DNA of 64,000 nt from Patescibacteria group bacterium. Its GTDB lineage: Bacteria > Patescibacteriota > Minisyncoccia > UBA6257 > GWB1-50-10. The stretch is taken from assembly GCA_023474215.1 (NCBI GenBank), contig JAMCYI010000011.1, positions 16,739 to 80,738 of the forward strand. Reading direction: 5' to 3'. The first letter of the stretch is position 1. Every line of letters starts with the position of its first letter. Positions 1-35,085 of the stretch are shown in pieces. The translations under genes and the position numbers were made by a program. The notes beneath the pieces were generated by a model. That model did not search any database and was not told the origin of the DNA. It saw only the letters and a program-made list of their open reading frames with translations.

Positions 1-202
1 ACCCCCTGCGGTACGTCGACGAAAGTGCAACACCGCGGGGCGAACAAAGAGCCGCAACCCGAAGGGGATACGGCAGATTTCCCCGCTGCCTTTGTCGCAT
101 TCGTCTCAGCGGATCGCTACGGATACGCCATCGGCTCCGCTTCGCGGCACTCGGTGAAATCTGCCAGTATCGCGGCTCGTGGTATTTTCGAGGTGGGTTC
201 TT

Positions 203-958
203 ATGAGGGGATTTTGCGAACTCATCGATGCGATCTTTGATGTCGTTTTCCCGCCGATCTGCCTTTCGTGCGAAACGATCGTCGGTGAGAATGAAAAAAC
301 ATTGTCGCTCTGCACATCGTGCCGTTCCCGCCTTAAAACAACAAGCGGATTCTTTTGTCCGGCATGTGGCAGGAGACTTCCTGCACCGCATGTTCCTTGC
401 CATGGAGGAGTTCAATTCGTGCTTGCTGCACCGTTTTTTTTCGAAGATCCAGTGATTCGAAAGATTATCCATCTCCTGAAATACAGTCACATCAAGCGAG
501 CGGCTGCTCCGCTTGCCTTTTTCATCGTTTCCTATCTTCAAAGCATCACAAGCATCAAGGATGCGGGCTATGACGACTTCGTGATGATCCCGACTCCCCT
601 CCACTCCTCGCGAGAAAGAAGAAGAGGCTTCAATCAATCGCTCCTCATTGCGCAAGAAATGGAAAAATTTTCAAAGATACTCGATGGCGAGCACCGGCTG
701 CCGAATTTCCGCATTGAAGCCGGCGTTCTTGCAAGAGTGCGAAAAACGGCACCGCAGATCAAGCAATCCTCGCGCGCAGCGAGGGCCGAGAACGTCCGCG
801 GATGTTTTGCCATCCGAGACGCCTCGAAGATAGCAGGGAGGAACATATTCCTCGTCGACGACGTTTTTACTTCAGGCGCCACCATGGGAGAGCTTGCAAG
901 ACTCCTCAAAACAAACGGAGCAAAGAAGATCATCGCCATCGTTGCCGCAAAAGCGTAA
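203..958 (+). CDS. comF: ComF family protein (phosphoribosyltransferase domain; competence protein ComFC-like)
   Basis: N-terminal CxxC...CxxC zinc-finger-like motifs. C-terminal PRTase signature LVDDVFTSGATM. ATG at 203 is in frame inside ORF 179..958. Confidence 0.7.
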   Translation: MRGFCELIDAIFDVVFPPICLSCETIVGENEKTLSLCTSCRSRLKTTSGFFCPACGRRLPAPHVPCHGGVQFVLAAPFFFEDPVIRKIIHLLKYSHIKRAAAPLAFFIVSYLQSITSIKDAGYDDFVMIPTPLHSSRERRRGFNQSLLIAQEMEKFSKILDGEHRLPNFRIEAGVLARVRKTAPQIKQSSRAARAENVRGCFAIRDASKIAGRNIFLVDDVFTSGATMGELARLLKTNGAKKIIAIVAAKA

Positions 959-969
959 GTTCCCTTGAT

Positions 970-3153: not shown

Positions 3154-3234
3154 TTCCTTTATTATAGCAAATCGATACGCCGAGAAACATGAAACCCCAT
3201 GAGGTAGATACACACTCATGGGGTTTGCTTGTTG

Positions 3235-4539
3235 CTAGTGAACGAGATAGACCGGCGACTGGCTCGCGGTCACGGTGCATTGCCCGTTTTGAACGGTTAC
3301 GGTTTGGCTGCTCCCGGTAAGCGTCGTGAGCGTTGCGCTTGATCCCGCGATGTTCCCGACCGTTACCGTCTGTGGAGTATTTGCCGTAGTCCAAATGGCA
3401 TCTATCGTCTTCTGATTCCCAGAAAAACGGTATTCGAAGATCCCGTTTCCGAAGCTATTGCTCTCGAAAGTCGCTCCACCGAGGATTCCCGTAAGAGTCT
3501 GGTAGGCATCGTAGTCCTCTTTTGAAGACAGCGCCCGATCGCGATGAACGAGACCGAAGTTATCCTCGTAAGGATCGCCCGTCCCGTCATCCCGGAAATC
3601 GTACCAAAATACCTTTTGGACTTCCGGCAGAGCGAGCAGTTGGACATATGCGCGGACCAGGTAGTCGGCTTGCTGGCTTTCTGATACGTAAGACACTCCC
3701 GTCGTCCATCCTATCTCGGTAATCCATAGGGGCTTATCCGGAAACAAGTCGTGGAAACCGGCGATCTGTCCGACGAGCATGCTGGGATAGGTGGTGTCGC
3801 CGCGCACCGTGATATCGGGTGCCACGCCGGGATACAAATCGACCGCAAGGATATCGAAATAGCTCGACCCGCCTGCGGCGTATACCTGGCTCACAAAAGA
3901 TGTGTCGGTTCCGACAACGCCTCCCATAAGAATATGGCTTTCCGGCGCAACGCTCATGATTGCTTCGTAACTTGCCCTCAAGAGCCGTACATAATCGTTC
4001 GCGTTGGGGGTTGGATGCCAGAACATCGAGAAATCTTCTTCGCTCCAGATTTCCCAGTAGTGAATCTGGTTTTTGTACCGACCCACAACTGTTTCCACAT
4101 AGCTGCTCCATTCAGCGAGCATGGTATCGGTCAAGGAAGACATATCCTTGTGATTGTTGGCTGCGCCCCACCATGACGCTCCATAGCAGAGCATCCCCAA
4201 CACGTTGATCTTCGCCTTCAGTTCCCCATTTACCGCCTTGTCGAACGGTGACCAATTGAATTGGTTCTTCTTCGGCTCGAGAACCGTCCACTCGAAAGAT
4301 TCCCGCTGCCATCGAATTCCGGCATCTGCCATCTTCGCGATAGCGGTACCAATGAGCGCGGTGTCGCTCCCCTGGTAACGGGTTGCAAGACAAGTAGTGG
4401 CGCCAAAAGGCCAACTTTCATATTCCGAGGCGAAGGTTGGGGAATCGGGAGGGTTCGGATTTGGATTCGGAGACGGAGCATCCGGCGGCTTGCATCCTGC
4501 AAGGGTAGCCACCAAGAGCATAAAAACTAATCGATTCAT
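3235..4539 (-). CDS. lipoprotein glycoside hydrolase (TIM-barrel, clan GH-A-like)
   Basis: Lipobox LVATLAGC followed by a PNPNPNPP linker. NQIHYWEIWSEED and LWITEIGWT motifs are typical of retaining GH-A nucleophile and acid/base regions. Confidence 0.55.
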   Translation of the reverse strand: MNRLVFMLLVATLAGCKPPDAPSPNPNPNPPDSPTFASEYESWPFGATTCLATRYQGSDTALIGTAIAKMADAGIRWQRESFEWTVLEPKKNQFNWSPFDKAVNGELKAKINVLGMLCYGASWWGAANNHKDMSSLTDTMLAEWSSYVETVVGRYKNQIHYWEIWSEEDFSMFWHPTPNANDYVRLLRASYEAIMSVAPESHILMGGVVGTDTSFVSQVYAAGGSSYFDILAVDLYPGVAPDITVRGDTTYPSMLVGQIAGFHDLFPDKPLWITEIGWTTGVSYVSESQQADYLVRAYVQLLALPEVQKVFWYDFRDDGTGDPYEDNFGLVHRDRALSSKEDYDAYQTLTGILGGATFESNSFGNGIFEYRFSGNQKTIDAIWTTANTPQTVTVGNIAGSSATLTTLTGSSQTVTVQNGQCTVTASQSPVYLVH

Positions 4540-4699
4540 GAATTACCTCCTGTTCAAGAAATTCTTTTTCGTTATAAATATATGTAAATGTTCTTTTATC
4601 TCAGGCAAAACTTCTGTAAAAATCATACAATAAATGCGTCATGTTGTCAAAAACGGAAAAGAGGTTCAACTTTTTAAGCTGAACCTCTTTAAACAATGA

Positions 4700-6082
4700 T
4701 CACTTGAGAAGAACCATCTTCTTGGTTTGAGTGTAGTTTCCTGCACTCAAGCGATAGAAGTAGGTGCCGCTGGGAAGTGTTCCAGCAGCGAAGGATATTT
4801 CATGAACTCCTAGGTTCATTTCATCCTCGACAAGAGTTTTAACTTCTTGACCGAGAACATTGTAAACCTTGAGTGTCACGAAAGTCCTTTTCGGAATTTC
4901 GAATCGAATCGTGGTCGTCGGATTGAAGGGGTTCGGGTAGTTCTGAGACAGGGCAAAGGTGCTCGGGTTGTGAGTTGGCTCGTCAACAGCAGTCACGGTT
5001 GTTGACGACACGACGTACACGCCATCATCGGTACCGACGAGAACGCTGTCTTTCCCGTAAGGATACAGACAACTTACGTTTTTCCCGATGAAGTCGACGT
5101 CCTGCCACGTGGTACCCGAATCGGATGAATAGTAAAGACCTCCGTCTCCAGCGATACCGGTTCCGATATCGTTATGGAAGGCGGCCCATACTTTTCCATC
5201 TACAGCAAGAACGGCAGAGGCATACATGGGCATGGGAGTTTTTCCCGTCACCTGTGCCCAACTTATGCCGTCATCCGTCGAACGGAAAACACCTTCTCCA
5301 TCGGTCGCCGCGAAGACGAAACCAGTCGAAGAATCTGAGGTAAGACCCCAAATGTTATAGCCGTTGGCTTTCATCGTTCCGTCGGGATTCGTGCTACCGT
5401 CTCCGATAGTACCGATCTCGCCGATTAAACCGCTGTCGGATTTTATCCAACTACCGCTATCACCATTGGCGGTGGAACGATAGATGCCCTCGACATAACC
5501 TTGAGGGTCACCATTACCGGTACCCGCAATGACTGTTCCTTTTGGCGTGACAGTTACGGCACGGAATCCCCCGATTGGAGGATTGAGCACATCGGACCAA
5601 CTTGAACCATTATCGCTCGAACGATAAATGGAACCGCCAAAGCTCGTTCCTACAAATATGTTGGAATCCTTCACCGCTATTGCTAACGGGCTCGGAGAAC
5701 TCATTTTAGAAACGGAGTTCCAAGAATTACCATTGTCAGTGGAATTAAAAAGATCTCCTCCCGTTCCCAAAAACAAGGTTCCGTTTGAACTCGCCTCGAT
5801 CGCATACGCAGAGGCAAACGGCATATTGGCGCCCTTCAGACCATTCATTAAATGGACCCAGGTGCTCCCCCCATTTGAGGAACGATAAAGATAATCGGTT
5901 CCGGTACCCACGAAAATAGTTCCTGTTCTGTCCACAAAAAGACATTGGGCAGCGGCATTGACCTTCACTCCGTCCAATACCCGATCCACGCCGAAATTCG
6001 TCGTAGCACTTTGCTGTGCCACGGCATCTACCGGCATCATGCTCGCAAGGAGCACAAAAGCCGAAAGAATGATTGCTTTCAT
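4700..6082 (-). CDS. exported BNR/Asp-box repeat protein with T9SS-type C-terminal sorting domain
   Basis: Signal peptide present. At least five SxDxGxTW Asp-box repeats (SSNGGSTW, STDNGNSW, SSDNGSSW, STDDGISW, SSDSGTTW). C-terminus NYPNPFNPTTTIRF...VYNVLGQEV...GTYFYRL...KKMVLLK matches the Por secretion system CTD consensus. Confidence 0.7.
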   Translation of the reverse strand: MKAIILSAFVLLASMMPVDAVAQQSATTNFGVDRVLDGVKVNAAAQCLFVDRTGTIFVGTGTDYLYRSSNGGSTWVHLMNGLKGANMPFASAYAIEASSNGTLFLGTGGDLFNSTDNGNSWNSVSKMSSPSPLAIAVKDSNIFVGTSFGGSIYRSSDNGSSWSDVLNPPIGGFRAVTVTPKGTVIAGTGNGDPQGYVEGIYRSTANGDSGSWIKSDSGLIGEIGTIGDGSTNPDGTMKANGYNIWGLTSDSSTGFVFAATDGEGVFRSTDDGISWAQVTGKTPMPMYASAVLAVDGKVWAAFHNDIGTGIAGDGGLYYSSDSGTTWQDVDFIGKNVSCLYPYGKDSVLVGTDDGVYVVSSTTVTAVDEPTHNPSTFALSQNYPNPFNPTTTIRFEIPKRTFVTLKVYNVLGQEVKTLVEDEMNLGVHEISFAAGTLPSGTYFYRLSAGNYTQTKKMVLLK

Positions 6083-6216
6083 TTTGAATCGCTCCTTTCG
6101 AGCTTTTATCCAGTTAAAATCAGTTAATTAAAATTTTTTCACAAGGATTAAAAGCTACTTAATCCTTGACTATCAAGTATTATACCATAAATCTCGAAAA
6201 AAAGGAAGGGGTCGAT

Positions 6217-8475
6217 TTAGTGCAGTAATCCTCGCACTTTTACGTAGTAGGTGGTGTTGGCGTTAAGATTGGTTATGGGCTGCACGTAAGTGCCTGTCGC
6301 CGTAGAGTTTAGCACGTTGAGAGTATTCCATATCGACGGATTACTTGAAGTTGCATAGAGCACTTGGTCGTCTTTTGCATAGCTCTGCGGATTGGTCCAC
6401 TGCACCGTGAAGCTGTTCGATGTCACGCTTCCCGGCTGAATGGTGACGTTCGTCGGCCACGTGTTCGATGCCACAGGAGTGGTGGACGACGTCTGTACGC
6501 AGTAAAGCCCGTTTTGCGGATCGCTCACGTGGCTCGGATCGCAGAAAGAAATTTGCCCTATGACGTTCGCGGGAGTCGTCGCTCCCGAAAACGTGCCGGA
6601 AGCGAGAGCAAGCGATACGCCGGAAAGATTGACGTAGCCGTCAGCCGATCCAAGCGAGGGATCGGAAGTCAAAAATCTTGCATAGCCGGAAAGGGCGCCC
6701 GTACTCATGTTCACCGTCGGAAGATTGAAGCCCGGATACGTCGGATCCATGTCCCCTTCGTTGAACGAGAGCCAGCCGTAGCCGCAGCTCGGACGCGTGT
6801 CGCCTGAGAGGCATGAATTGCCGCTCCATGCATATCCCATTAGCCTCCCGGTATCGGGATTCAGGTAAACGCCGTAAGAAATCGGGCTCGTGCCGCTCAA
6901 GTTCGGCGAAACGGTATCGGAACTGAACTTCACCCAGCCGACGGCATTTGCCGCCGATGAGGGGATTGTGGAGCTGCCGGCCCACGCCCAGCCCTTCACG
7001 GGCGACATTTTGCTCAAATCGAGCGTTATCGAAGACCGGGGAACGATGATGACCGGCGTTGCATCGCCCGGGTTCAATTGATAGCTCGTTATACGGTACT
7101 GAACCGTCTGGCCGATGGTTGGCGAATCGATGTAGCAGTTGAGGGACTGAGCACCGGGACACTGCACGGTGAGTAATTGCCATGTCTGGCCGTTATCGGT
7201 GCTCTTTTGCGGATTGAACGATTGGAACTGGCCGGCCGAACTCCACAAGACCGGCACCGTGACGGTATTGTTCGAATTCACGTTTTGCACGACGGCCCGG
7301 AAGTTGCCGATCACATAGGCAGTTGTGATCGAGGTTTGTCCCGCAAATGAGCAGCCGTTCATGCTGCACGCCGATATGGAGTACGTGTAACCGGTCCCGT
7401 AGCTTGCCTGGTTATCCGTGAAACTCCTTGCGCTGCCGGAAACTGTTGCTAAAGGAACAAAACTTCCTTGGCCCGTTGCACGCTGCAAGACAAAGTGATC
7501 CACGTAGCTCGAGGGGCTCGCATCGCTCCACGTGAGCTTCACGGCAACCTGGCCCTGGTCGGGATGAAGGCCCGTACCGGTCGTCGTCGCGGAAAGTCCC
7601 GTCGGCGTGCGCGGTACGATGACGGTCGATACGCCGGACGCAATGGTCACCTGGTTCGAATCTTTCACCGTCACGCTGTTTCCGGAAACCGTATCGTCGG
7701 AAAACGGATGACAGTACAAATCCGTTTGGTAGTAGTTGATCGAGTAAATGCTGTCGCCGTTGAAAGAAACATTGCTGTCGGGAACGATGAGCGAGCCGCC
7801 GCTGAATATGCTGGATGCGCTGTATCTCGTGAGCCCCCATTGATTGGGGCCGCTTTTGCTGATCATGATGCCGAAGGTCTTGAGGTCCCGTCCGCCGAAT
7901 TCCGGATCGATCGGGATGTTGATACTGACCGAACTCCCGCCGGTCGTCGAAAACGTGGCGCCTTGCGGCCCGTTTTGATTGATCGACGGCAGGGCAGGCG
8001 TCGTTGCCGACGCTGAAACTTTGACGCCCGTTTGATAGCTGACCGGTTGCGATGAATCGACCGGCCATATCGAATAATTAATCTGCATATTGGGGTCGAG
8101 GCCGACGTAATTCGAGAGATTCGACGAACCCGGGGCGCACTGCTGGATATTAGTGAGGCCCGTGGCCGCCGTGCCATTCACGCTCGCTCCCAAAGCATCG
8201 TCGATGCAAACTTTCGGCGAGGTGTTTTGGGGATCATTCCCCAAATTGAACCCTTGCGAGGTATTGATGCTCCCCGATCGCGAAAACCAAAATGAAACGC
8301 TTGGTTGATTGGGGTTGCTTTGCCAGCCAAGTTCGATGGCGCAGGCCGAAACGGGAGTTGCCGTGAAATTGGAGATCGACGGCGTCGTTTGAGCTTTCAC
8401 CTCTGTGTGCAACCACAAGCCGGCCGCGAAGACGACGGCAAGGAGTATAAAAAATGAAATTTTTAACTTGCTCAT
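6217..8475 (-). CDS. large exported protein, S/T/N-rich (possible FN3-like repeats)
   Basis: ORF 6217..8499. Start at 8475 (MSKLKISFFILLAVVFAAG signal peptide) gives an ATGA stop/start overlap with the upstream gene. Last gene of a four-gene exported-protein operon. Confidence 0.5.
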   Translation of the reverse strand: MSKLKISFFILLAVVFAAGLWLHTEVKAQTTPSISNFTATPVSACAIELGWQSNPNQPSVSFWFSRSGSINTSQGFNLGNDPQNTSPKVCIDDALGASVNGTAATGLTNIQQCAPGSSNLSNYVGLDPNMQINYSIWPVDSSQPVSYQTGVKVSASATTPALPSINQNGPQGATFSTTGGSSVSINIPIDPEFGGRDLKTFGIMISKSGPNQWGLTRYSASSIFSGGSLIVPDSNVSFNGDSIYSINYYQTDLYCHPFSDDTVSGNSVTVKDSNQVTIASGVSTVIVPRTPTGLSATTTGTGLHPDQGQVAVKLTWSDASPSSYVDHFVLQRATGQGSFVPLATVSGSARSFTDNQASYGTGYTYSISACSMNGCSFAGQTSITTAYVIGNFRAVVQNVNSNNTVTVPVLWSSAGQFQSFNPQKSTDNGQTWQLLTVQCPGAQSLNCYIDSPTIGQTVQYRITSYQLNPGDATPVIIVPRSSITLDLSKMSPVKGWAWAGSSTIPSSAANAVGWVKFSSDTVSPNLSGTSPISYGVYLNPDTGRLMGYAWSGNSCLSGDTRPSCGYGWLSFNEGDMDPTYPGFNLPTVNMSTGALSGYARFLTSDPSLGSADGYVNLSGVSLALASGTFSGATTPANVIGQISFCDPSHVSDPQNGLYCVQTSSTTPVASNTWPTNVTIQPGSVTSNSFTVQWTNPQSYAKDDQVLYATSSNPSIWNTLNVLNSTATGTYVQPITNLNANTTYYVKVRGLLH

Positions 8476-9113
8476 TGTTTTACACATGTATAAACCCAAC
8501 CGTTCGGCGCATCATAATTGCTATGGGAACCCATGAAACCTTCCAATATTTTTACCATGGTATAACCAGCAGCACAGCCGTTAGCACTCGAAAATTGATT
8601 GGAGACGCCAACAGCGGAATCGTTGAAGCCGCCGTTATTGTCGCATTGACTTATTGTAGCTTGACCCGTTCCAGCGATACCGCAAACATCACCCTGCGGT
8701 GGAAGGACAAGCGACCCAACCGTTACATTACCGCTCATTTTGAAAAGTCCGCCGCTTAAAACCAAATTACCGGTCTGCCCGTCTTCATACGAAGAAAAAT
8801 GCGTTTGGCCGTTCGCGACGGAAAGCATCGACTGCTGGGGAAAATTGATGAACGTATTGCTACCAAAAGAAAGGGTTCCGGGAACTTGAAGTCCAAAAGA
8901 GTTGCCACCCAATACGCTGACCGACCCAACAGAGAAATTTCCGGTTTTTACTTGAGCCGAAGGACCTTCGTCGACGGGAATGACGCCCCCGCCGCCGGCT
9001 ACATACGGAGGAACGGTCGGTTCGATAAAGGAAGCTCTCACCAAACCGAAGTAGGCCACTTGAACCGCAAGGAAGATCGCAACGATGATCAAATAGCTCG
9101 TTTGTTTTTTCAT
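8472..9113 (-). CDS. exported protein, paralog family member (Cys-rich C-terminal domain ...CAAGY...CVKQ)
   Basis: Signal/anchor MKKQTSYLIIVAIFLAVQVAYFG. C-terminal motif is shared with the two upstream genes. Confidence 0.5.
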   Translation of the reverse strand: MKKQTSYLIIVAIFLAVQVAYFGLVRASFIEPTVPPYVAGGGGVIPVDEGPSAQVKTGNFSVGSVSVLGGNSFGLQVPGTLSFGSNTFINFPQQSMLSVANGQTHFSSYEDGQTGNLVLSGGLFKMSGNVTVGSLVLPPQGDVCGIAGTGQATISQCDNNGGFNDSAVGVSNQFSSANGCAAGYTMVKILEGFMGSHSNYDAPNGWVYTCVKQ

Positions 9114-9117
9114 AATT

Positions 9118-10047
9118 TTATGTTTTCACGCAAACATGGATATCGTTAGTGCCACCGTCGATCACATACTTACCGAAGTCGACACGCTGGTATCCGGCGG
9201 GGCAGCTTTGATAAGCACCGTTGGGGTTATAGCCGCCGCAATCGTAGACCAAGTGGTCGGTATAGAGCCCGCACCATTCACCCTTAATCGGGAAATCGTT
9301 TTTGTTCACCATGACCGTACCCGCCTGAATGTTCACTCCCCCACCCATCGGCTGATAGACGAGCTCCGCATAATTATCATATTGAATTATCTGACCGATC
9401 ACTCTGCCGTACTGATCAACGCAATTTCCGCTTCCATCGGAACTGGCCCCCGAACCGTAGAGAGTTTGGCAATCCAAAAATATTTTTTCATAATCATACC
9501 CGTAACTTCCTATCGGCGGAGGCGTCGATTGACCCTTGTATGGAGCATTCACGGCACCGCTGCAATCGATGTTGTCGGTCGTGTCACAAGAAAGTATCTC
9601 GGACTGCTGCGCCGCCGTCATGGAAGAGGTCGATACGTACACCCCATCCTCTTGCCAAACACCGAAACCGGAGATCGCTTGGCTTATCAAGGTACTCACG
9701 CTGCCGTCGGTCCCAATGGTAAACCCAATGTCTTGTCCGGTCACCGGCGCCGGGAAGAAAACGTTCAATTCGTTGTTCCCGAAACCTATCCGATTGCTCC
9801 CGCCGTTCGGGGCACAGCCTTGATTGCCGTTGCCGCTGAATATGATGCATCCCCCGTTCGCCTTGAAGGTGACGCTGTCTTGGGGCGTCTGGAAGGAAGA
9901 TTGGCTCATCGATAGATCGCCTGATTTCGTTTGTCCCGAAGAATTGGTCGTAACGGGCATCGGCGATTGCTGCGCGCTCGCCAAAAGAGTCGCCCCCTCA
10001 ACGAGAATGATGGCGATAAAGAGTGCGATGAGCGATTTTTGTTTCAT
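9118..10047 (-). CDS. exported protein, paralog family member (C-terminal WCG...CPAGY...CVKT domain)
   Basis: ORF 9118..10275 trimmed to the Met at 10047 (MKQKSLIALFIAIILVEGATLLASAQ signal peptide). The longer ORF would overlap the upstream gene by about 200 nt. Confidence 0.5.
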   Translation of the reverse strand: MKQKSLIALFIAIILVEGATLLASAQQSPMPVTTNSSGQTKSGDLSMSQSSFQTPQDSVTFKANGGCIIFSGNGNQGCAPNGGSNRIGFGNNELNVFFPAPVTGQDIGFTIGTDGSVSTLISQAISGFGVWQEDGVYVSTSSMTAAQQSEILSCDTTDNIDCSGAVNAPYKGQSTPPPIGSYGYDYEKIFLDCQTLYGSGASSDGSGNCVDQYGRVIGQIIQYDNYAELVYQPMGGGVNIQAGTVMVNKNDFPIKGEWCGLYTDHLVYDCGGYNPNGAYQSCPAGYQRVDFGKYVIDGGTNDIHVCVKT

Positions 10048-10057
10048 AAGTTCCGGT

Positions 10058-11416
10058 TTACTTCTTAAAGCAGGTATCGACGGTATCTGGCCCATACGTC
10101 CACTGTTTATGCTCATACCCCGCGGGGCAGCCGTTTGACGGCAATATCCCTTGGCACGCTTCGGATCCGAATATTTTACTCCCCGTGCTTGCCAAATTAC
10201 CGTTACTGTCGTGGGCGTAGGCATCTTGAGATACGAATCCGCACCACGTTCCGCGCATCGGAACCGGGATTCCATTCACCGTCAAAGCGCTGCCTCCGGG
10301 GACCGATAAGACGGTTCCGGTCGGTTCCCATTTCTTGACAAGATAGGTCGTAGCAGCGTTGTTCGGCGTCGGATAACATCCGGCAGGATAGCCGATCTTG
10401 TACGGCCCGCTGGGGCAATAGCTGCACGATCCGGCTCCGTTATTGCCGCCCGAGGAATTATAGTAGTAGGTACAGCTTGCCACGTACTGCGGAACATATT
10501 CGGTATCTCCGAAAGCCGGGCAGCCCCCTCCTCCGAATGCGTTATTACCGACATAGCTTTGTGTGCTTACTTGAACCCATTGCCCCACGGCGCTCGTAAT
10601 GTCTATATTCCCCGCGCTGTCGAACGACATTCCGCATCCCCATTCCGGAGATCCGGAGAAGCTGTCGGTTGTAGCGGTAATGTAGAAATTTTTCCCGTAG
10701 CTGTCATAGTACATTCCTCCCTTCGGGTTGTAGCTCAAGGGGTCGATCAAATCGACCGCTCCACTGGGAAGTAAACTGATGCCGATACTGCTCAACGAAC
10801 TGTTCGCAATGCTCAATGTCCCCGACTTGACCTGCGTCGTCGAACCAATATCAAGGAAGTTCCCGACTTGGTTCTTCGGTGCGTAGTTCGGATTGTTGAT
10901 CGTCGGGCCGGTTGGGCCGGTTCCGGTACTCAAGTTGAAGCTGACGACTTTCACGCTCGAGAGATTGGTGGTAGGGCCAAGATATATTCCGTATGCTTCG
11001 ATTTGGCTGGCGTTCGCCACGGTGTCGGAAAAGGAAACGATCATGTTGGCATTACTCTGATAGGGATTAATACTGCCGCTTCCCACAAGTGTTGCGTTCG
11101 ATTTCGAGAACTGATTTTCGGAGCGATAGATCCAGTACGGCTGGATCGTCGAGTTGGGATTGTAAAACTTTATGGTAAGGGTAACGGTCGATGCATAGAG
11201 AGACGTGTTCGTCGCTACCGTGACCACCGCCGATTGCGGGTGCGTCGTCTTATTGCCGCCATTCCCATTATTATTGCAATTGGGGTTCGTTGGGGGGCAC
11301 GGCTCTTGAGGGACAACGGGTGCGCCGAAAACTCCTCTCGGCGCCGACACCAACACGCCGATTCCCAAAACCAAGAGGAGCGTCACGGCAAAAATTTTAA
11401 AGTTTCTTGGAAACAT
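10058..11416 (-). CDS. exported protein, paralog family member (C-terminal WCG...CPAGY...CFKK domain)
   Basis: Signal peptide MFPRNFKIFAVTLLLVLGIGVLVSA. C-terminal about 70 aa share the GTWCG / CPAGY / C-x-K pattern with the two downstream genes. Confidence 0.5.
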   Translation of the reverse strand: MFPRNFKIFAVTLLLVLGIGVLVSAPRGVFGAPVVPQEPCPPTNPNCNNNGNGGNKTTHPQSAVVTVATNTSLYASTVTLTIKFYNPNSTIQPYWIYRSENQFSKSNATLVGSGSINPYQSNANMIVSFSDTVANASQIEAYGIYLGPTTNLSSVKVVSFNLSTGTGPTGPTINNPNYAPKNQVGNFLDIGSTTQVKSGTLSIANSSLSSIGISLLPSGAVDLIDPLSYNPKGGMYYDSYGKNFYITATTDSFSGSPEWGCGMSFDSAGNIDITSAVGQWVQVSTQSYVGNNAFGGGGCPAFGDTEYVPQYVASCTYYYNSSGGNNGAGSCSYCPSGPYKIGYPAGCYPTPNNAATTYLVKKWEPTGTVLSVPGGSALTVNGIPVPMRGTWCGFVSQDAYAHDSNGNLASTGSKIFGSEACQGILPSNGCPAGYEHKQWTYGPDTVDTCFKK

Positions 11417-11451
11417 TTTTAAACTTGAATATGATATAATGATTATACCAT

Positions 11452-11946
11452 ATGCAACAGAATAAATTTAAGGTGATCATATACGTCTTAGCCGGCATCT
11501 TGATTTTAGTCGTCGGATTCATTGTTGGTTTTTACGCCGGCAGGCAAAACGGGCAAGCGATCGGCGAAGCGGCCGGCCAATCGCAGTACAAAGCATTGGT
11601 TGACTTTGCCTACCCTGCTCCAGCTCAAGAAATTCACGAAATATCCGGCGCCGTCAAATCGATCACCGCGAATTCGGTCACCTTTGTGGCAAGAGATCCG
11701 AACGATTACTTGCCGCACACCGACGGCTCTCCCTTCAGGCAAATCACCCTTACGGCAAATACGACCGCAAGCACCACGATCATGTCGGTCGACTATTCCA
11801 CGCTTGACAAGAATGGCAATCCGAAGACCGCCATCATCAGCTTGAACGACCTGAAGATCGGACAGATCATCACCGTCGACAGCAACGCCAATATACGCGA
11901 CGTTTCAAGCTTCGACGCGACCGTGATACGGGTGGTCAACCATTAA
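11452..11946 (+). CDS. membrane-anchored hypothetical protein
   Basis: N-terminal TM helix KVIIYVLAGILILVVGFIVGFYAG. No recognisable catalytic motif. Confidence 0.4.
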   Translation: MQQNKFKVIIYVLAGILILVVGFIVGFYAGRQNGQAIGEAAGQSQYKALVDFAYPAPAQEIHEISGAVKSITANSVTFVARDPNDYLPHTDGSPFRQITLTANTTASTTIMSVDYSTLDKNGNPKTAIISLNDLKIGQIITVDSNANIRDVSSFDATVIRVVNH

Positions 11947-11955
11947 TAAAGGAAC

Positions 11956-12552
11956 ATGAACTTAATACCAACGGTTATTGAAAAATCGTCGTACGGTGAA
12001 CGCGCCTACGATATCTATTCCCGCCTCCTTATGGAGCGGATCATCTTTCTCGGCGGACCCATCATGGACGATGTCGCAAACAGCGTTATCGCCCAGCTTC
12101 TCTTCTTGGACCACGAGGACCAAAAGAAGGACATCAAATTGTATTTGAATACGCCGGGTGGATCCGTGACGGCAGGTCTTGCCATTTACGACACGATGCA
12201 GCATGTAAAGGCGCCGGTCTCGACGATTTGTGTCGGCATGGCTGCTTCCATGGGCGCGGTGCTCCTCGGCTCCGGGCAAAAAGGAAAGCGGTTTGCGCTC
12301 CCCAATTCCGAGATCTTGCTTCACCAGGTAATGGGCGGCGCGGAAGGCCAAGCCATCGAAATCGAGATCACTGCACGGCAAATCGTAAAAATGAAGGATA
12401 AACTGAACCAAATCCTCGTCAAGCACACCGGACAGAAGGTGGACAAGATCGAGCGCGATACCGACCGCGATTTCTATCTCACGCCCCAAGAAGCAAGAGA
12501 TTACGGATTGATCGATGAGATCATCAAGACGAAAAATAATTTTAAGGCATAG
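11956..12552 (+). CDS. clpP: ATP-dependent Clp protease proteolytic subunit ClpP
   Basis: Near full-length match to the ClpP pattern: [10 protein letters not shown]...[20 protein letters not shown]...[11 protein letters not shown]...LHQVMGG. Confidence 0.9.
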
Positions 12553-12587
12553 GGATTAGGGTATAGGGTATAGGGTATAGGGTATAG
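12550..12587 (+). repeat. tandem heptamer repeat TAGGG(A/T)T-A, about 5 units, G-quadruplex-prone
   Basis: tagggat tagggta tagggta tagggta tagggta tag begins at the clpP stop codon. It contains four or more GGG tracts spaced by 4 nt. Confidence 0.7.
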
Positions 12588-12596
12588 AAAATAGAT

Positions 12597-12628
12597 GGAG
12601 CCGCCGCAAGGCGGCTTTTGGTTTTACC
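12597..12628 (+). terminator. Rho-independent terminator after clpP
   Basis: Hairpin gccgcc-gcaa-ggcggc followed by ttttggtttt. Confidence 0.6.
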
Positions 12629-12677
12629 TCAACCTCTTCCTTCGAACTTTCTCTTTTTCTGTGATAAAATTTTAATC

Positions 12678-13841
12678 ATGCGAAACAAAGAAGAACTGAT
12701 CCGGAGGATTCTGAACCGGGGCGTTGAAGAAATCATCGAAAAGGAGAGTTTAACAAAGAAACTCGATTCCGGAAAGAAGCTGCGAGTCAAGTTCGGCATC
12801 GATCCCACAAAGCCGGATATTCATCTCGGCCACACTGTTCCCCTCTTGAAGCTCCGTGAATTCCAGGAACTGGGGCATAAAGCTGTGCTCATAATCGGTG
12901 ATTTCACGGCTCAAATCGGCGACCCATCCGGCCAGTCAGCTGAACGGAAGCCGCTGACCGAAAAAGAAGTGAAGATGAACATGAAGCACTACCTCGAGCA
13001 GGCGGGGAAAGTTATCGACATCAAGAAAGCGGAGGTGCGGTACAACAGCGAATGGCACAAGAAAGAGGGTCTTATGTCCATGTTGACTATGGCGAGAGCC
13101 GCCAGTATCCAACAAGTCATGAAACGGAGAGAATTCAAAGAAAGGATCAACGCTGGCGGCGACATAACACTTCTTGAATTCTTATATCCCCTCTTCCAAG
13201 GGTATGACTCGGTGAAAATAAAATCCGATGTCGAAATCGGCGGCACTGATCAGAAATTCAATCTCCTGATGGGCCGACGGGTGCAGCGCCACTTCGGCGT
13301 TCCGGAACAAGATATCATAACCGTACCGCTCATCGAGGGTACGGACGGTATTCGCAAAATGAGCAAGAGTTTTGGAAATTATATAGGCATAGCCGAGGCG
13401 CCCAATGATATATTCAGTAAGGTCATGTCCGTACCGGACGCCTTGCTCGCAAAGTATTTCGAAAATCTTACGGAAACAAAACCGACGAGCAACGATCCTT
13501 ACCAATCAAAAATGCTCCTTGGGGAAACAATTGTCCGGATGTACCACGGCCAAAAAGCCGCGGAAAAGGCGAAGGAGAACTTCGTAAAAACGTTCTCAAA
13601 AAAAGAAATGCCGGACGAGATCGAAATAAAGACGGTTTCTTCTGATGCCCTTTCAAGCGGCACCACCGCGATGCTCGTCGCTATTGGAGCAGCGAAGAGC
13701 AATAGTGAAGCCCGAAGGTTAATTGATCAAGGCGCGGTGAAAGTTGACGGAAGGACGGTTAGCGACCCCAATGAAAAAAGAAAAGATGGCGAGGTCTTAA
13801 AAGTGGGTAAGCACCGTTTCTTTAAACTAAGGAAGAAATAA
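12678..13841 (+). CDS. tyrS: tyrosyl-tRNA synthetase (class I, with C-terminal S4 domain)
   Basis: HLGH-type motif (PDIHLGHTVPL), KMSKS motif, C-terminal S4-like RRLIDQGAVKVDGRTV. ATG at 12678 is inside ORF 12618..13841. Confidence 0.85.
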   Translation: MRNKEELIRRILNRGVEEIIEKESLTKKLDSGKKLRVKFGIDPTKPDIHLGHTVPLLKLREFQELGHKAVLIIGDFTAQIGDPSGQSAERKPLTEKEVKMNMKHYLEQAGKVIDIKKAEVRYNSEWHKKEGLMSMLTMARAASIQQVMKRREFKERINAGGDITLLEFLYPLFQGYDSVKIKSDVEIGGTDQKFNLLMGRRVQRHFGVPEQDIITVPLIEGTDGIRKMSKSFGNYIGIAEAPNDIFSKVMSVPDALLAKYFENLTETKPTSNDPYQSKMLLGETIVRMYHGQKAAEKAKENFVKTFSKKEMPDEIEIKTVSSDALSSGTTAMLVAIGAAKSNSEARRLIDQGAVKVDGRTVSDPNEKRKDGEVLKVGKHRFFKLRKK

Positions 13842-13842
13842 A

Positions 13843-14520
13843 TCAGTTCAAGATGAGCTTGCCGACGACGCCGGCTTGAGCACGTCCCGGTACGTCGTCA
13901 TGAAATCCGTAAATACCCGGCTTCATAATGACAAACGTGAGGAGCCGCGCACTCGAAGGCCCCACGCCGACGCTGATTGAAGAAAGGCTTGGATTGTCGA
14001 ACTTGAAGACGTGCGTATTATCATCGCTTGAAATGATCGCAAGCGTAATAATGCCACCCGCTTGGCCTGTAATGACGACCGGCGAAAAGCCGGTCGAGCT
14101 CACAGTGAGCTTCACCGCATTCGATGGTATTTGATCCTGCCCGATTTGACCCGATTGGCTGATCAGCCTGTAATCGCCGGAGGACAAACTCGGACCCGTG
14201 ATGCTCGCCCCCGCCGACGATCCGCCGGATGACGGGGTTTGCTCGCTGGGGGTTTGATTTCCGGTACTTGTGGCCGGTGCGGTCTCCGCGGGCTGACTCG
14301 GCGTTTCCACGGGAGGAGTTGTTCCTTGGCCTTGATTCCCGTTCGGAGTTTGCTGGTTCAAAGGAGGCAGAGTTACGGTTTCAGTCGATGTCGACTTGCC
14401 CCCCAAAAGACCCCCGACGTTTCCGAGCGGGGCAAGAAAGAAGATACCAAAGAAGACGATCGCGACGACAATGAGACCGATAAAAAGAAGGATGATGATG
14501 AGACGAATGGCATCTTCCAT
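13843..14520 (-). CDS. membrane-anchored hypothetical protein, Pro/Thr/Ser-rich linker, cupredoxin-like C-terminal fold without copper ligands
   Basis: N-terminal TM helix. C-terminus KPGIYGFHDDVPGRAQAGVVGKLILN resembles plastocyanin-like strand topology but has no Cys. Confidence 0.35.
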   Translation of the reverse strand: MEDAIRLIIILLFIGLIVVAIVFFGIFFLAPLGNVGGLLGGKSTSTETVTLPPLNQQTPNGNQGQGTTPPVETPSQPAETAPATSTGNQTPSEQTPSSGGSSAGASITGPSLSSGDYRLISQSGQIGQDQIPSNAVKLTVSSTGFSPVVITGQAGGIITLAIISSDDNTHVFKFDNPSLSSISVGVGPSSARLLTFVIMKPGIYGFHDDVPGRAQAGVVGKLILN

Positions 14521-14633
14521 GGGAAGGTTGCGTTCAATTTAACTTTATCAGATTTGCAAGGAAATAGGAACGGAAGTTTTCCCGACCCATTTCCCGAGTT
14601 CGATTCTCACTGACATTAAGGAATATAGAAGAC

Positions 14634-14683
14634 CCACTACAAGAGTGGGCTTTGTATTTTGTGCGGCCAGGGAGAATCGGCTT
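14634..14683 (-). repeat. about 50-bp direct repeat copy 1 (hairpin cccact/agtggg plus the tRNA-Gly 3'-terminal 18 nt); the second copy is 14812..14861
   Basis: acccactacaagagtgggctttgtattttgtgcggccagggagaatcg occurs twice. The second copy overlaps the 3' end of the intact tRNA-Gly. Confidence 0.8.
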
Positions 14684-14811
14684 CGCCTCTCGCTGCGCTC
14701 GGGCTAGCCACCGCCTCGCGTCCCTCGACAAGCTCGGGGCATGCTCCGGCGTTCGATTCCCCACGTGAGCCAAGCAGTTAGCTCACTCTGGCCAGGCATA
14801 GAAAATACAAA
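14684..14811 (-). repeat. tRNA-attached GC-rich element, copy A (T-type family)
   Basis: Reverse complement contains the conserved core GGGGAATCGAACGCCGGAGCATGCCCCGAGCTTGTCGAGGGACGCGAGGCGGTGGCTAGCCCGAGCGCAGCGAGAGGCGAAG. It lies between tRNA-Gly and the duplicated tRNA-Gly 3' end. Confidence 0.7.
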
Positions 14812-14841
14812 ACCCACTACAAGAGTGGGCTTTGTATTTTG

Positions 14842-14912
14842 TGCGGCCAGGGAGAATCGAACTCCCGTCTCATCCTTGGCAAGGACGTGTTCTACCACTA
14901 AACCATGACCGC
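14842..14912 (-). tRNA. tRNA-Gly (anticodon GCC)
   Basis: Manual cloverleaf: GCGGTCA acceptor, anticodon loop TTGCCAA, T-arm GGGAGTTCGATTCTCCC, 3' TGGCCGC-A. CCA is not encoded. Confidence 0.8.
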
Positions 14913-15273: not shown

Positions 15274-16002
15274 TCAATGTTGTTTACTATTATGCGACTT
15301 ATGAATTTGATAGTCGGGTATCCTAGAAAGGAATATGGCTTTGCGCTCCAGTCCTATTGGGAACCCAGGATAATACATATAGCGCAATAACTCATCGGAA
15401 TCTTTCATCCCATACCCCAACTTCAAAGAGGCGCCATTATTAAACACACCCAGCGCTTTCAATGGGAGATTGATTTCTTTCTTAAGGATGAACATAAGCT
15501 CTTCGAGAAACTTTCTGCTACCTGACGTAAAATTGGTCCTTAATTCACGAGCAGGTCGACCGTCCTTTGTTCTAATATACTCAACGAAGAAAACACTACC
15601 GTCGCCATCAAAATAGCCCCTTATAAAATCTCTTAAATATTTTCTTGGCACACGAGGAAAGGTAATGGTTTTACTTTTACGCCTGAATCCACCAAGTTTA
15701 GTTAAAGATCCATAGAGATGTTTCGAGTGAAAACTAACATGCCAAGCATCGTCCCCCTTGCTCCTCCTCACTGGATTAGTAGAGCTCATCGCAGACCTTA
15801 TATCCATCAGAATGTGCTTATCATTAGAGCACAACACCACCCTATATGATCGCTCCTTCCTCATATAACCGTCCGCAAACCAGAAACCAAGAATGTAAGC
15901 CATGGACGATGACCACTTATCAAAGAACTTCTCATTGAGGGTATACTTTCTACTGTGATATTTGCCTTGGGTTAATATCTTCACAAAAATATTATATCTC
16001 AA
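15274..16002 (-). CDS. LAGLIDADG homing endonuclease (double-motif)
   Basis: Two LAGLIDADG motifs, ILGFWFADGY and RGYFDGDGSV, about 100 aa apart. The longest ORF starts at TTG. MAYILGFWFADGY (Met at about 15904) is an alternative start. Confidence 0.8.
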   Translation of the reverse strand: MRYNIFVKILTQGKYHSRKYTLNEKFFDKWSSSMAYILGFWFADGYMRKERSYRVVLCSNDKHILMDIRSAMSSTNPVRRSKGDDAWHVSFHSKHLYGSLTKLGGFRRKSKTITFPRVPRKYLRDFIRGYFDGDGSVFFVEYIRTKDGRPARELRTNFTSGSRKFLEELMFILKKEINLPLKALGVFNNGASLKLGYGMKDSDELLRYMYYPGFPIGLERKAIFLSRIPDYQIHKSHNSKQH

Positions 16003-17907: not shown

Positions 17908-17994
17908 GGAGGCGTGGCCGAGTGGCTTAAGGCAGCATCCTGCTAAGATGTTAGGGGAGCAATCCCCTCGAAGGTTCGAATCCTTCCGCCTCCG
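17908..17994 (+). tRNA. tRNA-Ser (anticodon GCT), class II
   Basis: GGAGGCG acceptor, anticodon loop CTGCTAA, long variable arm GGGGAGCAATCCCCTC, T-arm GAAGGTTCGAATCCTTC, 3' CGCCTCC-G. Confidence 0.8.
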
Positions 17995-17996
17995 CA

Positions 17997-18136
17997 GGAG
18001 CGCATGCACGTGAACCGCTTCACGTGCATGAAGATTCGAACGCCGGAGCGTGTCCCGAGCTTGTCGAGGGACGCGAGGCGGTGCCCAGCCCGAGGCGCAA
18101 AGCCGAGAGGCGAGGGAGAATCCTTCCGCCTCCGCA
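17997..18136 (+). repeat. tRNA-attached GC-rich element, copy B (T-type), ending in an 18-nt duplicate of the tRNA-Ser 3' end
   Basis: 12-bp palindromic hairpin catgcacgtgaa-ccgc-ttcacgtgcatg. Conserved core AAGATTCGAACGCCGGAGCGTGTCCCGAGCTTGTCGAGGGACGCGAGGCGGTGCCCAGCCCGAGGCGCAAAGCCGAGAGGCGAGGGAG. Then aatccttccgcctccgca at 18119..18136, identical to the tRNA-Ser 3' terminus. Confidence 0.75.
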
Positions 18137-18233: not shown

Positions 18234-18713
18234 ATGGACGACGAAAAGAAAATAACGTGGGAGGCGCCGGAATTCGATTATGTCGAGAAGAGCGTCGGAT
18301 GGTATTTCATTTTCGGCGTTGTGTTCTTTGCCATGATCGTCTTCGGATGGTTCAGCCGCAATTTTTTCTTTATGATCTTCCTCTTGATCGCCGGCATTCT
18401 CGTTGTTGCATTGAGCAACCGGAAACCGGAAAAGGTGAAATTCATCCTCGGAGAGGAAGCGTGTACCATCGGAGCTTCAAAGACGCCCTACCGCTATTCC
18501 GAAATGAAGGGATTCGCCATTGTGGAACGCGAACACCGGAATAACCTTCTTGTTTTCCGGCGAAACGTCGCGGTGAACCAATATTTGAAATTGCCGCTCG
18601 AGAAGGGTATAACAAGCGAGGTACGCAGCTTCTTAAAAGAGAAGCTCGCCGAAGGAAGTTACGAAGAAGGCCTCTTGGACGTTCTCATCGATCGAGTAGG
18701 TCTGGGGTCATAA
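18234..18713 (+). CDS. hypothetical membrane protein
   Basis: Two TM helices (WYFIFGVVFFAMIVFGWF, FFMIFLLIAGILVVAL). No recognisable domain. Confidence 0.4.
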   Translation: MDDEKKITWEAPEFDYVEKSVGWYFIFGVVFFAMIVFGWFSRNFFFMIFLLIAGILVVALSNRKPEKVKFILGEEACTIGASKTPYRYSEMKGFAIVEREHRNNLLVFRRNVAVNQYLKLPLEKGITSEVRSFLKEKLAEGSYEEGLLDVLIDRVGLGS

Positions 18714-18716
18714 TTT

Positions 18717-18788
18717 GCCCTCGTCGTCCAACGGACAGGACGCGAGATTGCGGATCTCGAAATAGAGGTTCGATTCCTCTCGAGGGCA
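18717..18788 (+). tRNA. tRNA-Arg (anticodon reads GCG, unusual)
   Basis: GCCCTCG acceptor (same as the tRNA-Arg CCT at 35709), anticodon stem CGAGA/TCTCG with loop TTGCGGA, T-arm AGAGGTTCGATTCCTCT, discriminator A. Confidence 0.65.
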
Positions 18789-18937
18789 CAATAAAGTAAA
18801 TTGAGAAGCGCGCAAACTGCTTTGCGCGCGTTTGGAATCGAACGCCGGAGCATGTCCCGACCTCGCCGAGGGACGCGAGGCGGTGCCCAGCCCGAGGCGC
18901 GAGCCGAGAGGCGAGGGAGATTCCTCTCGAGGGCACA
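18789..18937 (+). repeat. tRNA-attached GC-rich element, copy C (T-type), ending in an 18-nt duplicate of the tRNA-Arg 3' end
   Basis: Hairpin gcgcgcaaa-ctgc-tttgcgcgc. Core GGAATCGAACGCCGGAGCATGTCCCGACCTCGCCGAGGGACGCGAGGCGGTGCCCAGCCCGAGGCGCGAGCCGAGAGGCGAGGGAG. Then attcctctcgagggcaca at 18920..18937, which equals the tRNA-Arg 3' end. Confidence 0.75.
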
Positions 18938-18940
18938 AAA

Positions 18941-18980
18941 ATCCCGCCGGTCCATTGACCGGCGGGATCTTTTTGTATTC
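18941..18980 (+). terminator. Rho-independent terminator
   Basis: atcccgccggtc-cattg-accggcgggat followed by ctttttgtattc. Confidence 0.65.
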
Positions 18981-35005: not shown

Positions 35006-35085
35006 GGGGCTATGGTATCACAAAGTCCATTGATATATCAAAATAGTACTTGGACGATACTATTTATTCTATACTTAAGGTATAT

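Follow-up and report, generated by a model that had tools for sequence, protein, structure and literature searches.

A structured RNA element behind tRNA genes of Patescibacteria that ends in a copy of the host tRNA 3′ end

Among the genetic elements tied to tRNA genes, the tRNA-targeting integrative elements (phages, integrative and conjugative elements, genomic islands) display an arrangement in which an intact tRNA is followed by the insert, the segment from the T-loop to the 3′ end of the tRNA is present as a direct repeat and the orientation is fixed. The same arrangement is found in three copies of a small element located behind the tRNA-Gly, tRNA-Ser and tRNA-Arg genes of a stretch of 64,000 nucleotides (nt), hereafter "the window", from the Saccharibacteria-like genome of a Patescibacteria group bacterium (positions 16,739 to 80,738 of contig JAMCYI010000011.1, assembly GCA_023474215.1). 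Unlike the integrative elements, however, this element is only about 125–155 nt long and encodes no integrase or other protein, belongs to a family found behind at least 13 tRNAs instead of a single cognate target, and consists of a conserved RNA fold that uses the repeat as a strand of its closing helices. We describe here the family, its fold and strand, its linkage to tRNA genes, the repeat and one site seen both empty and filled; the element emerges as probably an undescribed structured RNA, mobile or formerly mobile, whose cotranscription with the tRNA and mechanism of insertion we infer from these observations.

Other known systems resemble the element in one respect and depart from it in others. 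With the tRNA-like structures (the tRNA-like domain of tmRNA, the tRNA-like 3′ ends of plant viruses, mascRNA and the YrlA module of bacterial Y RNA) it appears to share, in most extended copies, an acceptor-like helix stacked on a T-stem-like helix, the tRNA discriminator and, probably, handling by the enzymes that process tRNA ends; unlike them, it has a two-arm core instead of a T-loop and elbow, its acceptor strand is copied from the upstream tRNA, and their Rfam models do not match it. Like non-long-terminal-repeat retroposons and short interspersed nuclear elements (SINEs), it is non-coding, is associated with a duplication whose boundary is fixed at the 3′ junction and variable at the 5′ junction, shows microhomology and one-base irregularities at the 3′ junction and occurs also as 5′-truncated and tandem copies, but the host is bacterial, there is no A-tail and no partner reverse transcriptase was found. 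The group I introns of Patescibacteria tRNAs (PMC13011429) occur in the same host clade, are likewise RNA elements tied to tRNAs and have homing-endonuclease-like genes near some loci, yet they interrupt the anticodon loop and are spliced, whereas the element is much smaller, lies behind an intact tRNA and does not match Intron_gpI. Finally, the HDV-like "theta" ribozymes (named after hepatitis delta virus) and other tRNA-trailing RNAs are structured RNAs placed directly behind a same-strand tRNA; the element differs from these in its fold, in having no Rfam ribozyme match, in being often separated from the tRNA by a terminator and in carrying the copy of the tRNA 3′ end.

At the gathering thresholds of Rfam 15 only tRNAs pass in the window, while in E-value mode the tRNA-Ser-linked copy gives only two chance matches (E > 6) and five further loci give only tRNAs; no paper was found that contains the core sequence or describes the element among the tRNA-linked RNAs of the candidate phyla radiation (CPR), PMC13011429 being concerned solely with group I introns of the anticodon loop. 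A local likeness to an HDV-like ribozyme (GCCGG..CAUGGUCCC) was ruled out, given that GUCCC and GGGAC form a local hairpin and no Rfam match is obtained, and a likeness to 5S rRNA (three-way junction, CGAAC, GAGAG..GGGA) was rejected, there being no RF00001 match even at E up to 10. We regard the element as a real RNA family, undescribed as far as the libraries show, with a design that fits no known kind and with a means of spreading and a function that can be proposed from its structure and distribution.

Three copies in the window and their common fold

The initial annotation of the window, made from the letters alone, had pointed to three tRNAs (Gly, Ser, Arg), each followed on its own strand by a hairpin, a GC-rich block and a copy of the tRNA 3′ end, and a reading of the region together with ARAGORN and Rfam confirms this description. 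Copy A, of the "GGCU..AGCC" sub-type, occupies 14661..14799 on the minus strand behind tRNA-Gly(GCC) (14841/2..14912, minus strand; ARAGORN, and 68.3 bits with the Rfam tRNA model); copy B, of the "GCCC..GGGA" sub-type, occupies 17993..18135 on the plus strand behind tRNA-Ser(GCT) (17908..17994/5, plus strand; ARAGORN and Rfam), and copy C occupies 18795..18936 on the plus strand behind tRNA-Arg(GCG) (18717..18788/9, plus strand; ARAGORN and Rfam). A covariance model of the family (see below) recognizes them with 136 bits (the full model being covered, in keeping with the fold), 132 bits and 141.6 bits, respectively; even with filters off it finds exactly three copies in the window, at 132–142 bits, followed by a match of 13 bits. 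A 31-nt segment of the core, GGGACGCGAGGCGGTGCCCAGCCCGAGGCGC, is identical in copies B and C and gave 0 matches in 100 shuffles. The match next in rank (13.4 bits, E ~0.02 with filters off) lies at 39916..40043 (plus strand), inside an open reading frame (ORF; 39287..40225) without Pfam match, and is probably due to chance.

Each copy ends, as had been claimed, in an exact duplicate of the 3′ terminus of its tRNA. The duplicate measures 19 nt in copy B (17978..17996 and 18118..18136, plus strand) and 20 nt in copy C (18772..18791 and 18919..18938, plus strand), the latter being followed by an intrinsic terminator (18941..18968, plus strand; terminator scan). In copy A the duplication includes the downstream hairpin, as first noticed, and amounts to 48 exact nt: its first copy (14812..14859, minus strand) runs from C56 in the T-loop of tRNA-Gly to the tRNA 3′ end and through most of the terminator hairpin, that is, the 5′ arm, the loop and the 3′ arm as far as GTGGGT, and its second copy (14632..14679, minus strand; terminator scan) comprises the tRNA-Gly 3′ end again and the 5′ part of the terminator. 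The tRNA genes of the window are without encoded CCA, and most of them have C-A-(A) right past the discriminator (e.g., at 14840, 18214 and 18790).

The architecture was derived from recurring single-sequence folds and from the alignment, and the covariance model was built from 21 copies. The element folds, on the tRNA-sense strand, into seven helices (P1–P7). P1 is formed by the strand upstream of the hairpin and the acceptor 3′ strand of the repeat, P2 is the hairpin, with a variable stem, a CUGC loop and closing AA/UU pairs, and P3 pairs GGGAWUCG with CGAWUCCC, i.e., with positions 57–60 of the T-loop and the 3′ strand of the T-stem as present in the repeat. The three-way core consists of P4/P5 and P6/P7: P4 (CGCCG with CGGUG) encloses P5 (GUCCC with GGGAC), which is often lengthened via CGAG/CGAG with a tandem G·A, whereas P6 (GSCY-A-GCCC with G-A-GGC..RGS) contains a bulged A and a second tandem G·A, and P7 often closes in GAGCGACGGCGA or in a GNRA-like loop. 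Since the 3′ half of the T-loop is paired in P3 and the P4–P7 core takes the place of the loop, neither T-loop nor elbow is formed. In copy A (minus strand) the 5′ strand of P1 lies at about 14797..14787, P2 at 14786..14765, the 5′ strand of P3 at 14762..14754 and the core at 14753..14680, the 3′ end being the tRNA-derived strand; in copy B (plus strand) P2, the P3 5′ strand and the core are found at 18003..18030, 18031..18038 and 18039..18117, and in copy C (plus strand) at 18808..18829, 18834..18840 and 18841..18918. Two further structures were considered and rejected: a kissing interaction of the CUGC loop of P2 with GCAG in the P5 loops is available only in some copies, and a hairpin upstream of GAAUCGAAC is, by eye, not conserved among the three window copies.

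Two claims of the initial annotation acquire a structural meaning in the light of this fold. The hairpin had been described as differing in sequence from copy to copy; in the three window copies, where the hairpins are perfect or near-perfect, this holds for the stems, but conservation is evident in the C(U/C)GC loop and in the AA/UU closing pairs, so that the hairpin is not arbitrary and belongs to the family. The first bases of the core had been seen to track the T-loop variant of the host tRNA, and they do, these bases being the 5′ strand of P3, which pairs with the beginning of the repeated tRNA segment; the tracking is thus explained by base pairing with the repeat, and the chemistry of insertion is not necessarily its cause. 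Behind a tRNA-like 3′ end having the T-loop UUCAAUU the element carries AAUUGAA and not AAUCGAA, which means that even a normally invariant position co-varies.

Across the collected loci (designated by L numbers) the covariance model yields 39 matches of 28–155 bits, save one of 11.6 bits (E = 0.3). Standard pairs occupy 95.7% of the cells, compared with 74.1% in column shuffles and 35–51% when the 3′ partner is slid by 1–3 columns, and changes on both sides occur in 32 of 39 pairs, compared with 20.9 in shuffles (a value reached in 0 of 500), all these counts coming from an alignment that was fitted to the model and therefore favours it. G·U combinations outnumber A·C by 96 to 17 and two pairs of the core are almost invariantly G·U, indicating that the folded strand is that of the tRNA and pointing to an RNA.

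P1, for which indels preclude a single register, was left out of the covariance model and was assessed from the energies of cognate versus non-cognate duplexes. In 11 of 21 distinct cases the 5′ strand of P1 forms its most stable duplex with the 3′ strand of its own tRNA, and the mean duplex energy is −10.9 kcal/mol with the cognate and −5.8 kcal/mol with non-cognate strands. In most of the extended copies P1 is formed and prefers its cognate tRNA.

That the element is short, non-coding and multi-copy, and that it possesses a hairpin with variable stem and conserved loop as well as ends resembling inverted repeats, might suggest a DNA-level non-autonomous transposon (a miniature inverted-repeat transposable element, a REPIN or a relative of the insertion sequences IS200/IS605), whose single-stranded DNA hairpins would be read by a transposase encoded elsewhere. 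DDE transposons generate short duplications of fixed length and IS200/IS605 elements generate none; the repeat of the element, on the other hand, varies from 17 to 48 nt, and its "inverted repeats" (P3 and P1 versus the tRNA copy) seem specific for the target and not for the family. Furthermore, the near-invariant G·U pairs, the G·U excess on one strand, the GNRA-like loops and the tandem G·A pairs point to RNA, and no transposase was found in the window, so that we consider this explanation very unlikely.

Distribution, insertion and inheritance behind tRNA genes

The family was sought outside the window with the pattern TCGAACGCCGGAG-N15-35-GACGCGAGGCGG, first in one-genome-per-species collections of bacteria and archaea and then in metagenomes. 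The genomes yielded 9 loci, all in metagenome-assembled genomes (MAGs) of Patescibacteria/CPR (Paceibacterota, Microgenomates, Saccharibacteria, Parcubacteria) or in unclassified "bacterium" bins, and the metagenomes 18 more. With a looser regular expression the tally is 34 copies from 28 sources, the window included, all of them CPR or unclassified MAGs; beyond the window the scans thus produced 31 further copies in 27 loci. In viral contigs one exact pattern gave no match, and the single partial match obtained with a looser one (L028, 11 bits) was rejected as chance. A tRNA is located on the same strand 25–176 nt upstream of 27 of the 34 copies, and the hosts comprise at least 13 tRNA identities (Trp, Gly, Ser, Leu, Lys, Val, Arg, Tyr, Pro, Ile, Ala, His, Cys). 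The "GGCU..AGCC" and "GCCC..GGGA" sub-families, both represented in the window, each occur behind other tRNAs in other phyla.

Recurrence of the architecture in 27 further loci, from independent assemblies, also disposes of the suspicion, raised from the start, of an assembly artefact. As for a protein-coding region, ORFs can indeed be drawn across the copies, but the lengths of the helices vary by steps not limited to multiples of three (an untallied reading of the alignment) and the substitutions keep the base pairs; the probability that artefact or coding explains the blocks is negligible, and the early view that the ORFs are themselves artefacts would fit the compensatory changes and the variable length of the helices.

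Of the copies lacking a called tRNA upstream, three are near contig ends (L001, L008, L012). In another group (L004, L011, L025) the element is preceded by a T-arm and acceptor strand that no tool calls as a tRNA. In L004 this upstream sequence is U-AA-CCAGG-AGGUC-T-arm-acceptor; judging from it, the piece has the appearance of a 3′ exon from a tRNA in which a group I intron sits at 35/36, and Patescibacteria are reported to have tRNAs with such introns in the anticodon loop, which are said to be missed by standard tools (PMC13011429). The copy at L008 310..463 (plus strand), a 117-bit match with a P1 strand and a tRNA-like 3′ tail, has no tRNA in the 309 nt upstream or in the whole 8-kb locus, and may be an orphan or may have its tRNA past the contig end. 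A divergent variant is seen at L010 7582..7745 (minus strand) behind tRNA-Ala, where a P2-like hairpin with a CUGC loop, lying between A and U runs, doubles as an intrinsic terminator; two short cores in tandem (AAAGCCGGAG..CGAGGCGGGGUC) come next, and both the GAAUCGAAC start and the tRNA-end repeat are lacking.

In nearly every copy the element ends with an exact tRNA repeat, mostly of 17–25 nt, which starts at position 55–61, in the T-loop or T-stem, and in most cases stops 0–5 nt past the tRNA end given by ARAGORN. Over all copies the downstream boundary of the repeat ranges from +0 to +29 nt past the tRNA end, whereas the upstream boundary is fixed in the T-loop, a combination that fits a target-primed or staggered-break insertion. 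The right junction shows one-base irregularities at GAWUCC in L002, L015, L016, L026 and L027, as microhomology joins would give, and tandem and truncated copies are present in L001, L020 and L024. A CCA next to the repeat, taken as a possible sign of an RNA intermediate, was seen only in L019 and, arguably, in L024, which is not above chance: in L019 CCA comes after the repeated 3′ end of tRNA-Ser and TTC after the gene itself, and in L024 the repeat reads ..CCTCCC-CA and the gene ..CCTCCC-AA.

Identity blocks (attL/attR) generated at tRNA genes usually run from the T-loop to the tRNA 3′ end and little beyond, and the repeats of the element span just these positions. The blocks might accordingly be looked upon as the footprint of an integrase-mediated phage or genomic island, i.e., a degenerate remnant with the tRNA 3′ end in its attP, and at L004 3871..6857 (the same organism is represented by L011/L025) two 99%-identical copies of terminator, element and repeat do flank an island of 2.6 kb, whose genes encode a retron-type reverse transcriptase (PADLOC RT_II-A, 2e-35), a PNPOx-like protein and a serine hydrolase. 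However, neither within the copies nor near them was an integrase found, the blocks are not decaying DNA but an RNA fold conserved with covariation, and a single attP cannot match the many tRNAs used by one family without destroying the tRNA; the reverse transcriptase of L004, which is the only one near a copy, is retron-like and confined, within the set, to that genome, and was also rejected as a general partner of the element. This origin is extremely unlikely, and an integrative element in the classical, integrase-dependent sense is not supported, since neither in the window nor recurrently near the copies was a cognate recombinase or transposase found.

Comparison of syntenic relatives of the window (L003, L005, L029–L032 and L033–L035, the last two groups having been retrieved via the 159-aa protein encoded at 18234..18713) indicates how individual copies are gained, kept and lost. 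The window and L029–L031 have the tRNA-Arg copy, whereas in L033/L035 tRNA-Arg(GCG) is followed directly by a terminator homologous to that located past the repeat in the window. The filled allele corresponds to the empty one plus the element plus a duplication of ~20 nt, from positions 57/58 to 73+2; this is the empty site whose existence in relatives the initial annotation had suggested to look for. At the same tRNA-Arg(GCG) site L003 (3820..3890, minus strand) has a chimera in place of the element, in which an element-like 5′ piece, GCGGGGCATGTGCCGTA, is joined to parts of a diverged tRNA-Arg, namely its anticodon arm (the UUGCGGA loop being unchanged), its T-arm and its acceptor 3′ strand, and the usual terminator comes next.

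The tRNA-Ser copy, on the other hand, is orthologous in five genomes (the window, L003, L005, L029 and L033), P2, P5 and P7 showing compensatory changes and P7 being longer in L033; it is vertically inherited under structural constraint. Gene conversion may also have left its mark. In the tRNA-Gly locus of L005 the first terminator recurs as the second in diverged form, its changes being compensated, and the tRNA part is identical at 19 of 19 positions; in the window, where 48 nt are identical, the second terminator is chimeric, its 5′ half being that of the first terminator and its 3′ half that of the second terminator of L005. The copy A tract thus carries the signature of a conversion tract extending from the tRNA into the repeat. 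Moreover, L016 contains a decayed copy with a decayed repeat, from which it follows that the exactness of the repeat in intact copies is maintained and not trivial. These sequences show that, after insertion, the repeat is homogenized with the tRNA, by selection or by gene conversion.

Vertical inheritance of the tRNA-Ser copy with its compensatory changes, the conversion-like tract of copy A as compared with L005, the absence from the window of a mobility gene for the element (reverse transcriptase, integrase or transposase) and the strong purifying selection on the core across phyla are also what would be expected of a static, host-beneficial small RNA gene or a processing module of tRNA operons, the tail of which is homogenized by gene conversion and the copies of which spread by duplication or rearrangement of tRNA clusters. 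A static gene does not readily account, however, for a clean tRNA-Arg insertion, relative to the empty allele, with a repeat resembling a target duplication, for the use of at least 13 tRNA identities in different genomes, for the tandem and truncated copies of L001, L020 and L024 or for sub-families common to several phyla behind different tRNAs; in addition, unrelated tRNA tails share only 6–8 nt, below the homology that gene conversion would need. We consider it unlikely that the element is static. The two candidates originally put forward, a miniature mobile element and a tRNA-cotranscribed structured RNA, are best taken together: presence and absence at the orthologous tRNA-Arg site, the target-derived repeat and the variety of tRNA identities in several CPR lineages favour the former, and the conserved fold on the tRNA-sense strand favours the latter.

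Gene neighbourhood and possible mechanism

The window is a piece of ordinary chromosome, with genes for aminoacyl-tRNA synthetases, IF-2, ClpP, a MacB/ABC transporter, TsaD, a MurD-like ligase and an H+-pyrophosphatase. Its only genes of mobility type are two ORFs with helix-turn-helix (HTH) and LAGLIDADG-like domains, one (15274..16002, minus strand; Pfam LAGLIDADG_3, 1.5e-10) between tRNA-Cys and tRNA-Leu and the other (35050..35718, plus strand) having a stop codon that overlaps the start of tRNA-Arg(CCT). Relatives of these proteins, encoded next to tRNA genes and mostly just upstream of them (L004, L005, L009, L015, L016, L029, L033), constitute the sole recurrent non-syntenic family among the neighbours of the element, a recurrence for which there was no control set and from which no association with the element is claimed. 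The ORF between tRNA-Cys and tRNA-Leu is absent in L003 and L005, which indicates that such genes are themselves mobile. By their sequence and position they look like free-standing homing-endonuclease genes colonizing tRNA clusters, and they are candidate sources of breaks in these clusters. An autonomous relative of the element was found in none of the 35 loci.

In the mechanism that we favour, the element would be a small-RNA gene of about 125–155 nt, read in the tRNA sense from the transcript of the upstream tRNA. It is closed by P3 and, in the majority of copies, also by P1; the 3′ strand of these helices is the copy of the host tRNA, which begins in the T-loop (position 56–58), includes the discriminator and extends slightly past it, so that the end of the RNA would mimic the acceptor/T-stem stack of a tRNA, with the core in place of the T-loop and P2 in place of the D and anticodon arms. 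The RNA could then be given defined and stable ends by RNase P, 3′ trimming and CCA addition. Copy B lies within a tRNA operon, flanked by tRNA-Ser and, 6 nt past the repeat, by tRNA-Glu (from 18142), and no terminator intervenes, as would suit cotranscription.

Each insertion would leave the tRNA intact and create the direct repeat. A break or nick anchored in the T-loop by the GAWUCC microhomology may come first; copying of the element, primed by microhomology, and another, imprecise break farther downstream would then complete a target-primed or staggered-break insertion, the nuclease or polymerase being supplied in trans; alternatively, Campbell-type recombination of a small circle already containing a tRNA 3′ fragment could lead to the same product. 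After insertion the partner strands of P1 and P3 would adapt by compensatory changes, of which P3 may need as little as one (AUU versus AAU T-loops), while P1 would adapt or be dispensed with. As to the role of the RNA in the cell, it could be a decoy or mimic of the tRNA tail, a processing module or a purely selfish element.

Several observations weigh against this picture of a mobile, cotranscribed RNA, in addition to the bias of the covariation counts mentioned above. The comparison of relatives yielded a single clean empty site. The window encodes neither a reverse transcriptase nor an integrase or transposase, none of these recurs near the copies, and a retro-mechanism is weakened by the reported lack of group II introns in Patescibacteria (PMC13011429). 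Between tRNA and element an intrinsic terminator intervenes in many copies, so that transcription would need read-through, and no convincing promoter of the element's own was found. P1 is missing in compact copies placed directly behind the tRNA (L010, L024, L027) and weak in copy C, indicating that the full acceptor mimic is not universal, and in L020 the 3′ repeat has diverged from the tRNA while the element still scores 123 bits, indicating that identity to the tRNA is not strictly required.

A second family of the same design and implications for CPR bacteria

Downstream of copy A the window contains, at 14577..14616 (minus strand), a truncated remnant of another family, designated F, in which a complement of the 3′ side of the tRNA-Gly T-arm is followed by a core, the remainder being deleted (GTCAGTGAGAATCGAAC-TCGGGAAATGGGTCGG-hairpin). 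Full copies of family F are present in L005 (3881..4031, minus strand) and L002 (985..1136, plus strand): they begin with a stretch complementary to the host tRNA's T-stem 3′ strand and T-loop, continue with a core (..GGGAWnGGGUCGG plus hairpins) that is unrelated to that of the first element, and close with a somewhat degenerate copy of the tRNA 3′ end, which a terminator follows. The order of the locus, found in two phyla and behind two different tRNAs, is tRNA, terminator, first element, repeat, terminator, family F, repeat, terminator. Two unrelated cores thus have a start complementary to the tRNA and an end copied from it, so that the design is not tied to one core, and the sharing of this design speaks for one process, or one use of the tRNA tail, behind both families.

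It can be envisaged, as a tentative and rather doubtful extension, that the element and family F represent a new class of protein-less mobile RNA genes of ultra-small CPR bacteria, which would recognize the T-arm/3′ strand by base pairing, become joined to a tRNA 3′ fragment and be fixed in the genome behind the tRNA. In such a class the joining might result from an attack on the T-loop at the RNA level or, if the T-loop is nicked, from target-primed copying at the nick, and the tRNA-derived "tag" might allow the copies to be processed, and perhaps replicated, like a tRNA.

The element represents a widespread and strongly constrained CPR RNA family that is absent from the current RNA libraries, and its design, in which the closing helices of a small RNA are made with a duplicate of the tail of the upstream tRNA, is unrecorded. 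In CPR bins the blocks are a source of false ORFs and pseudo-tRNA fragments, which matters for annotation. By mimicking the tRNA tail the element could bear on tRNA processing, on decoy functions and on integration hot-spots, the latter in view of the two copies that flank the retron island in L004. If mobile, as the empty and filled sites suggest, the element would be a protein-less element specialized on tRNA 3′ ends in extremely reduced genomes, and, were the reading of both families as one class to prove true, these RNAs could be set beside tRNA-tagged retro-replicons and SINEs as their bacterial counterpart.

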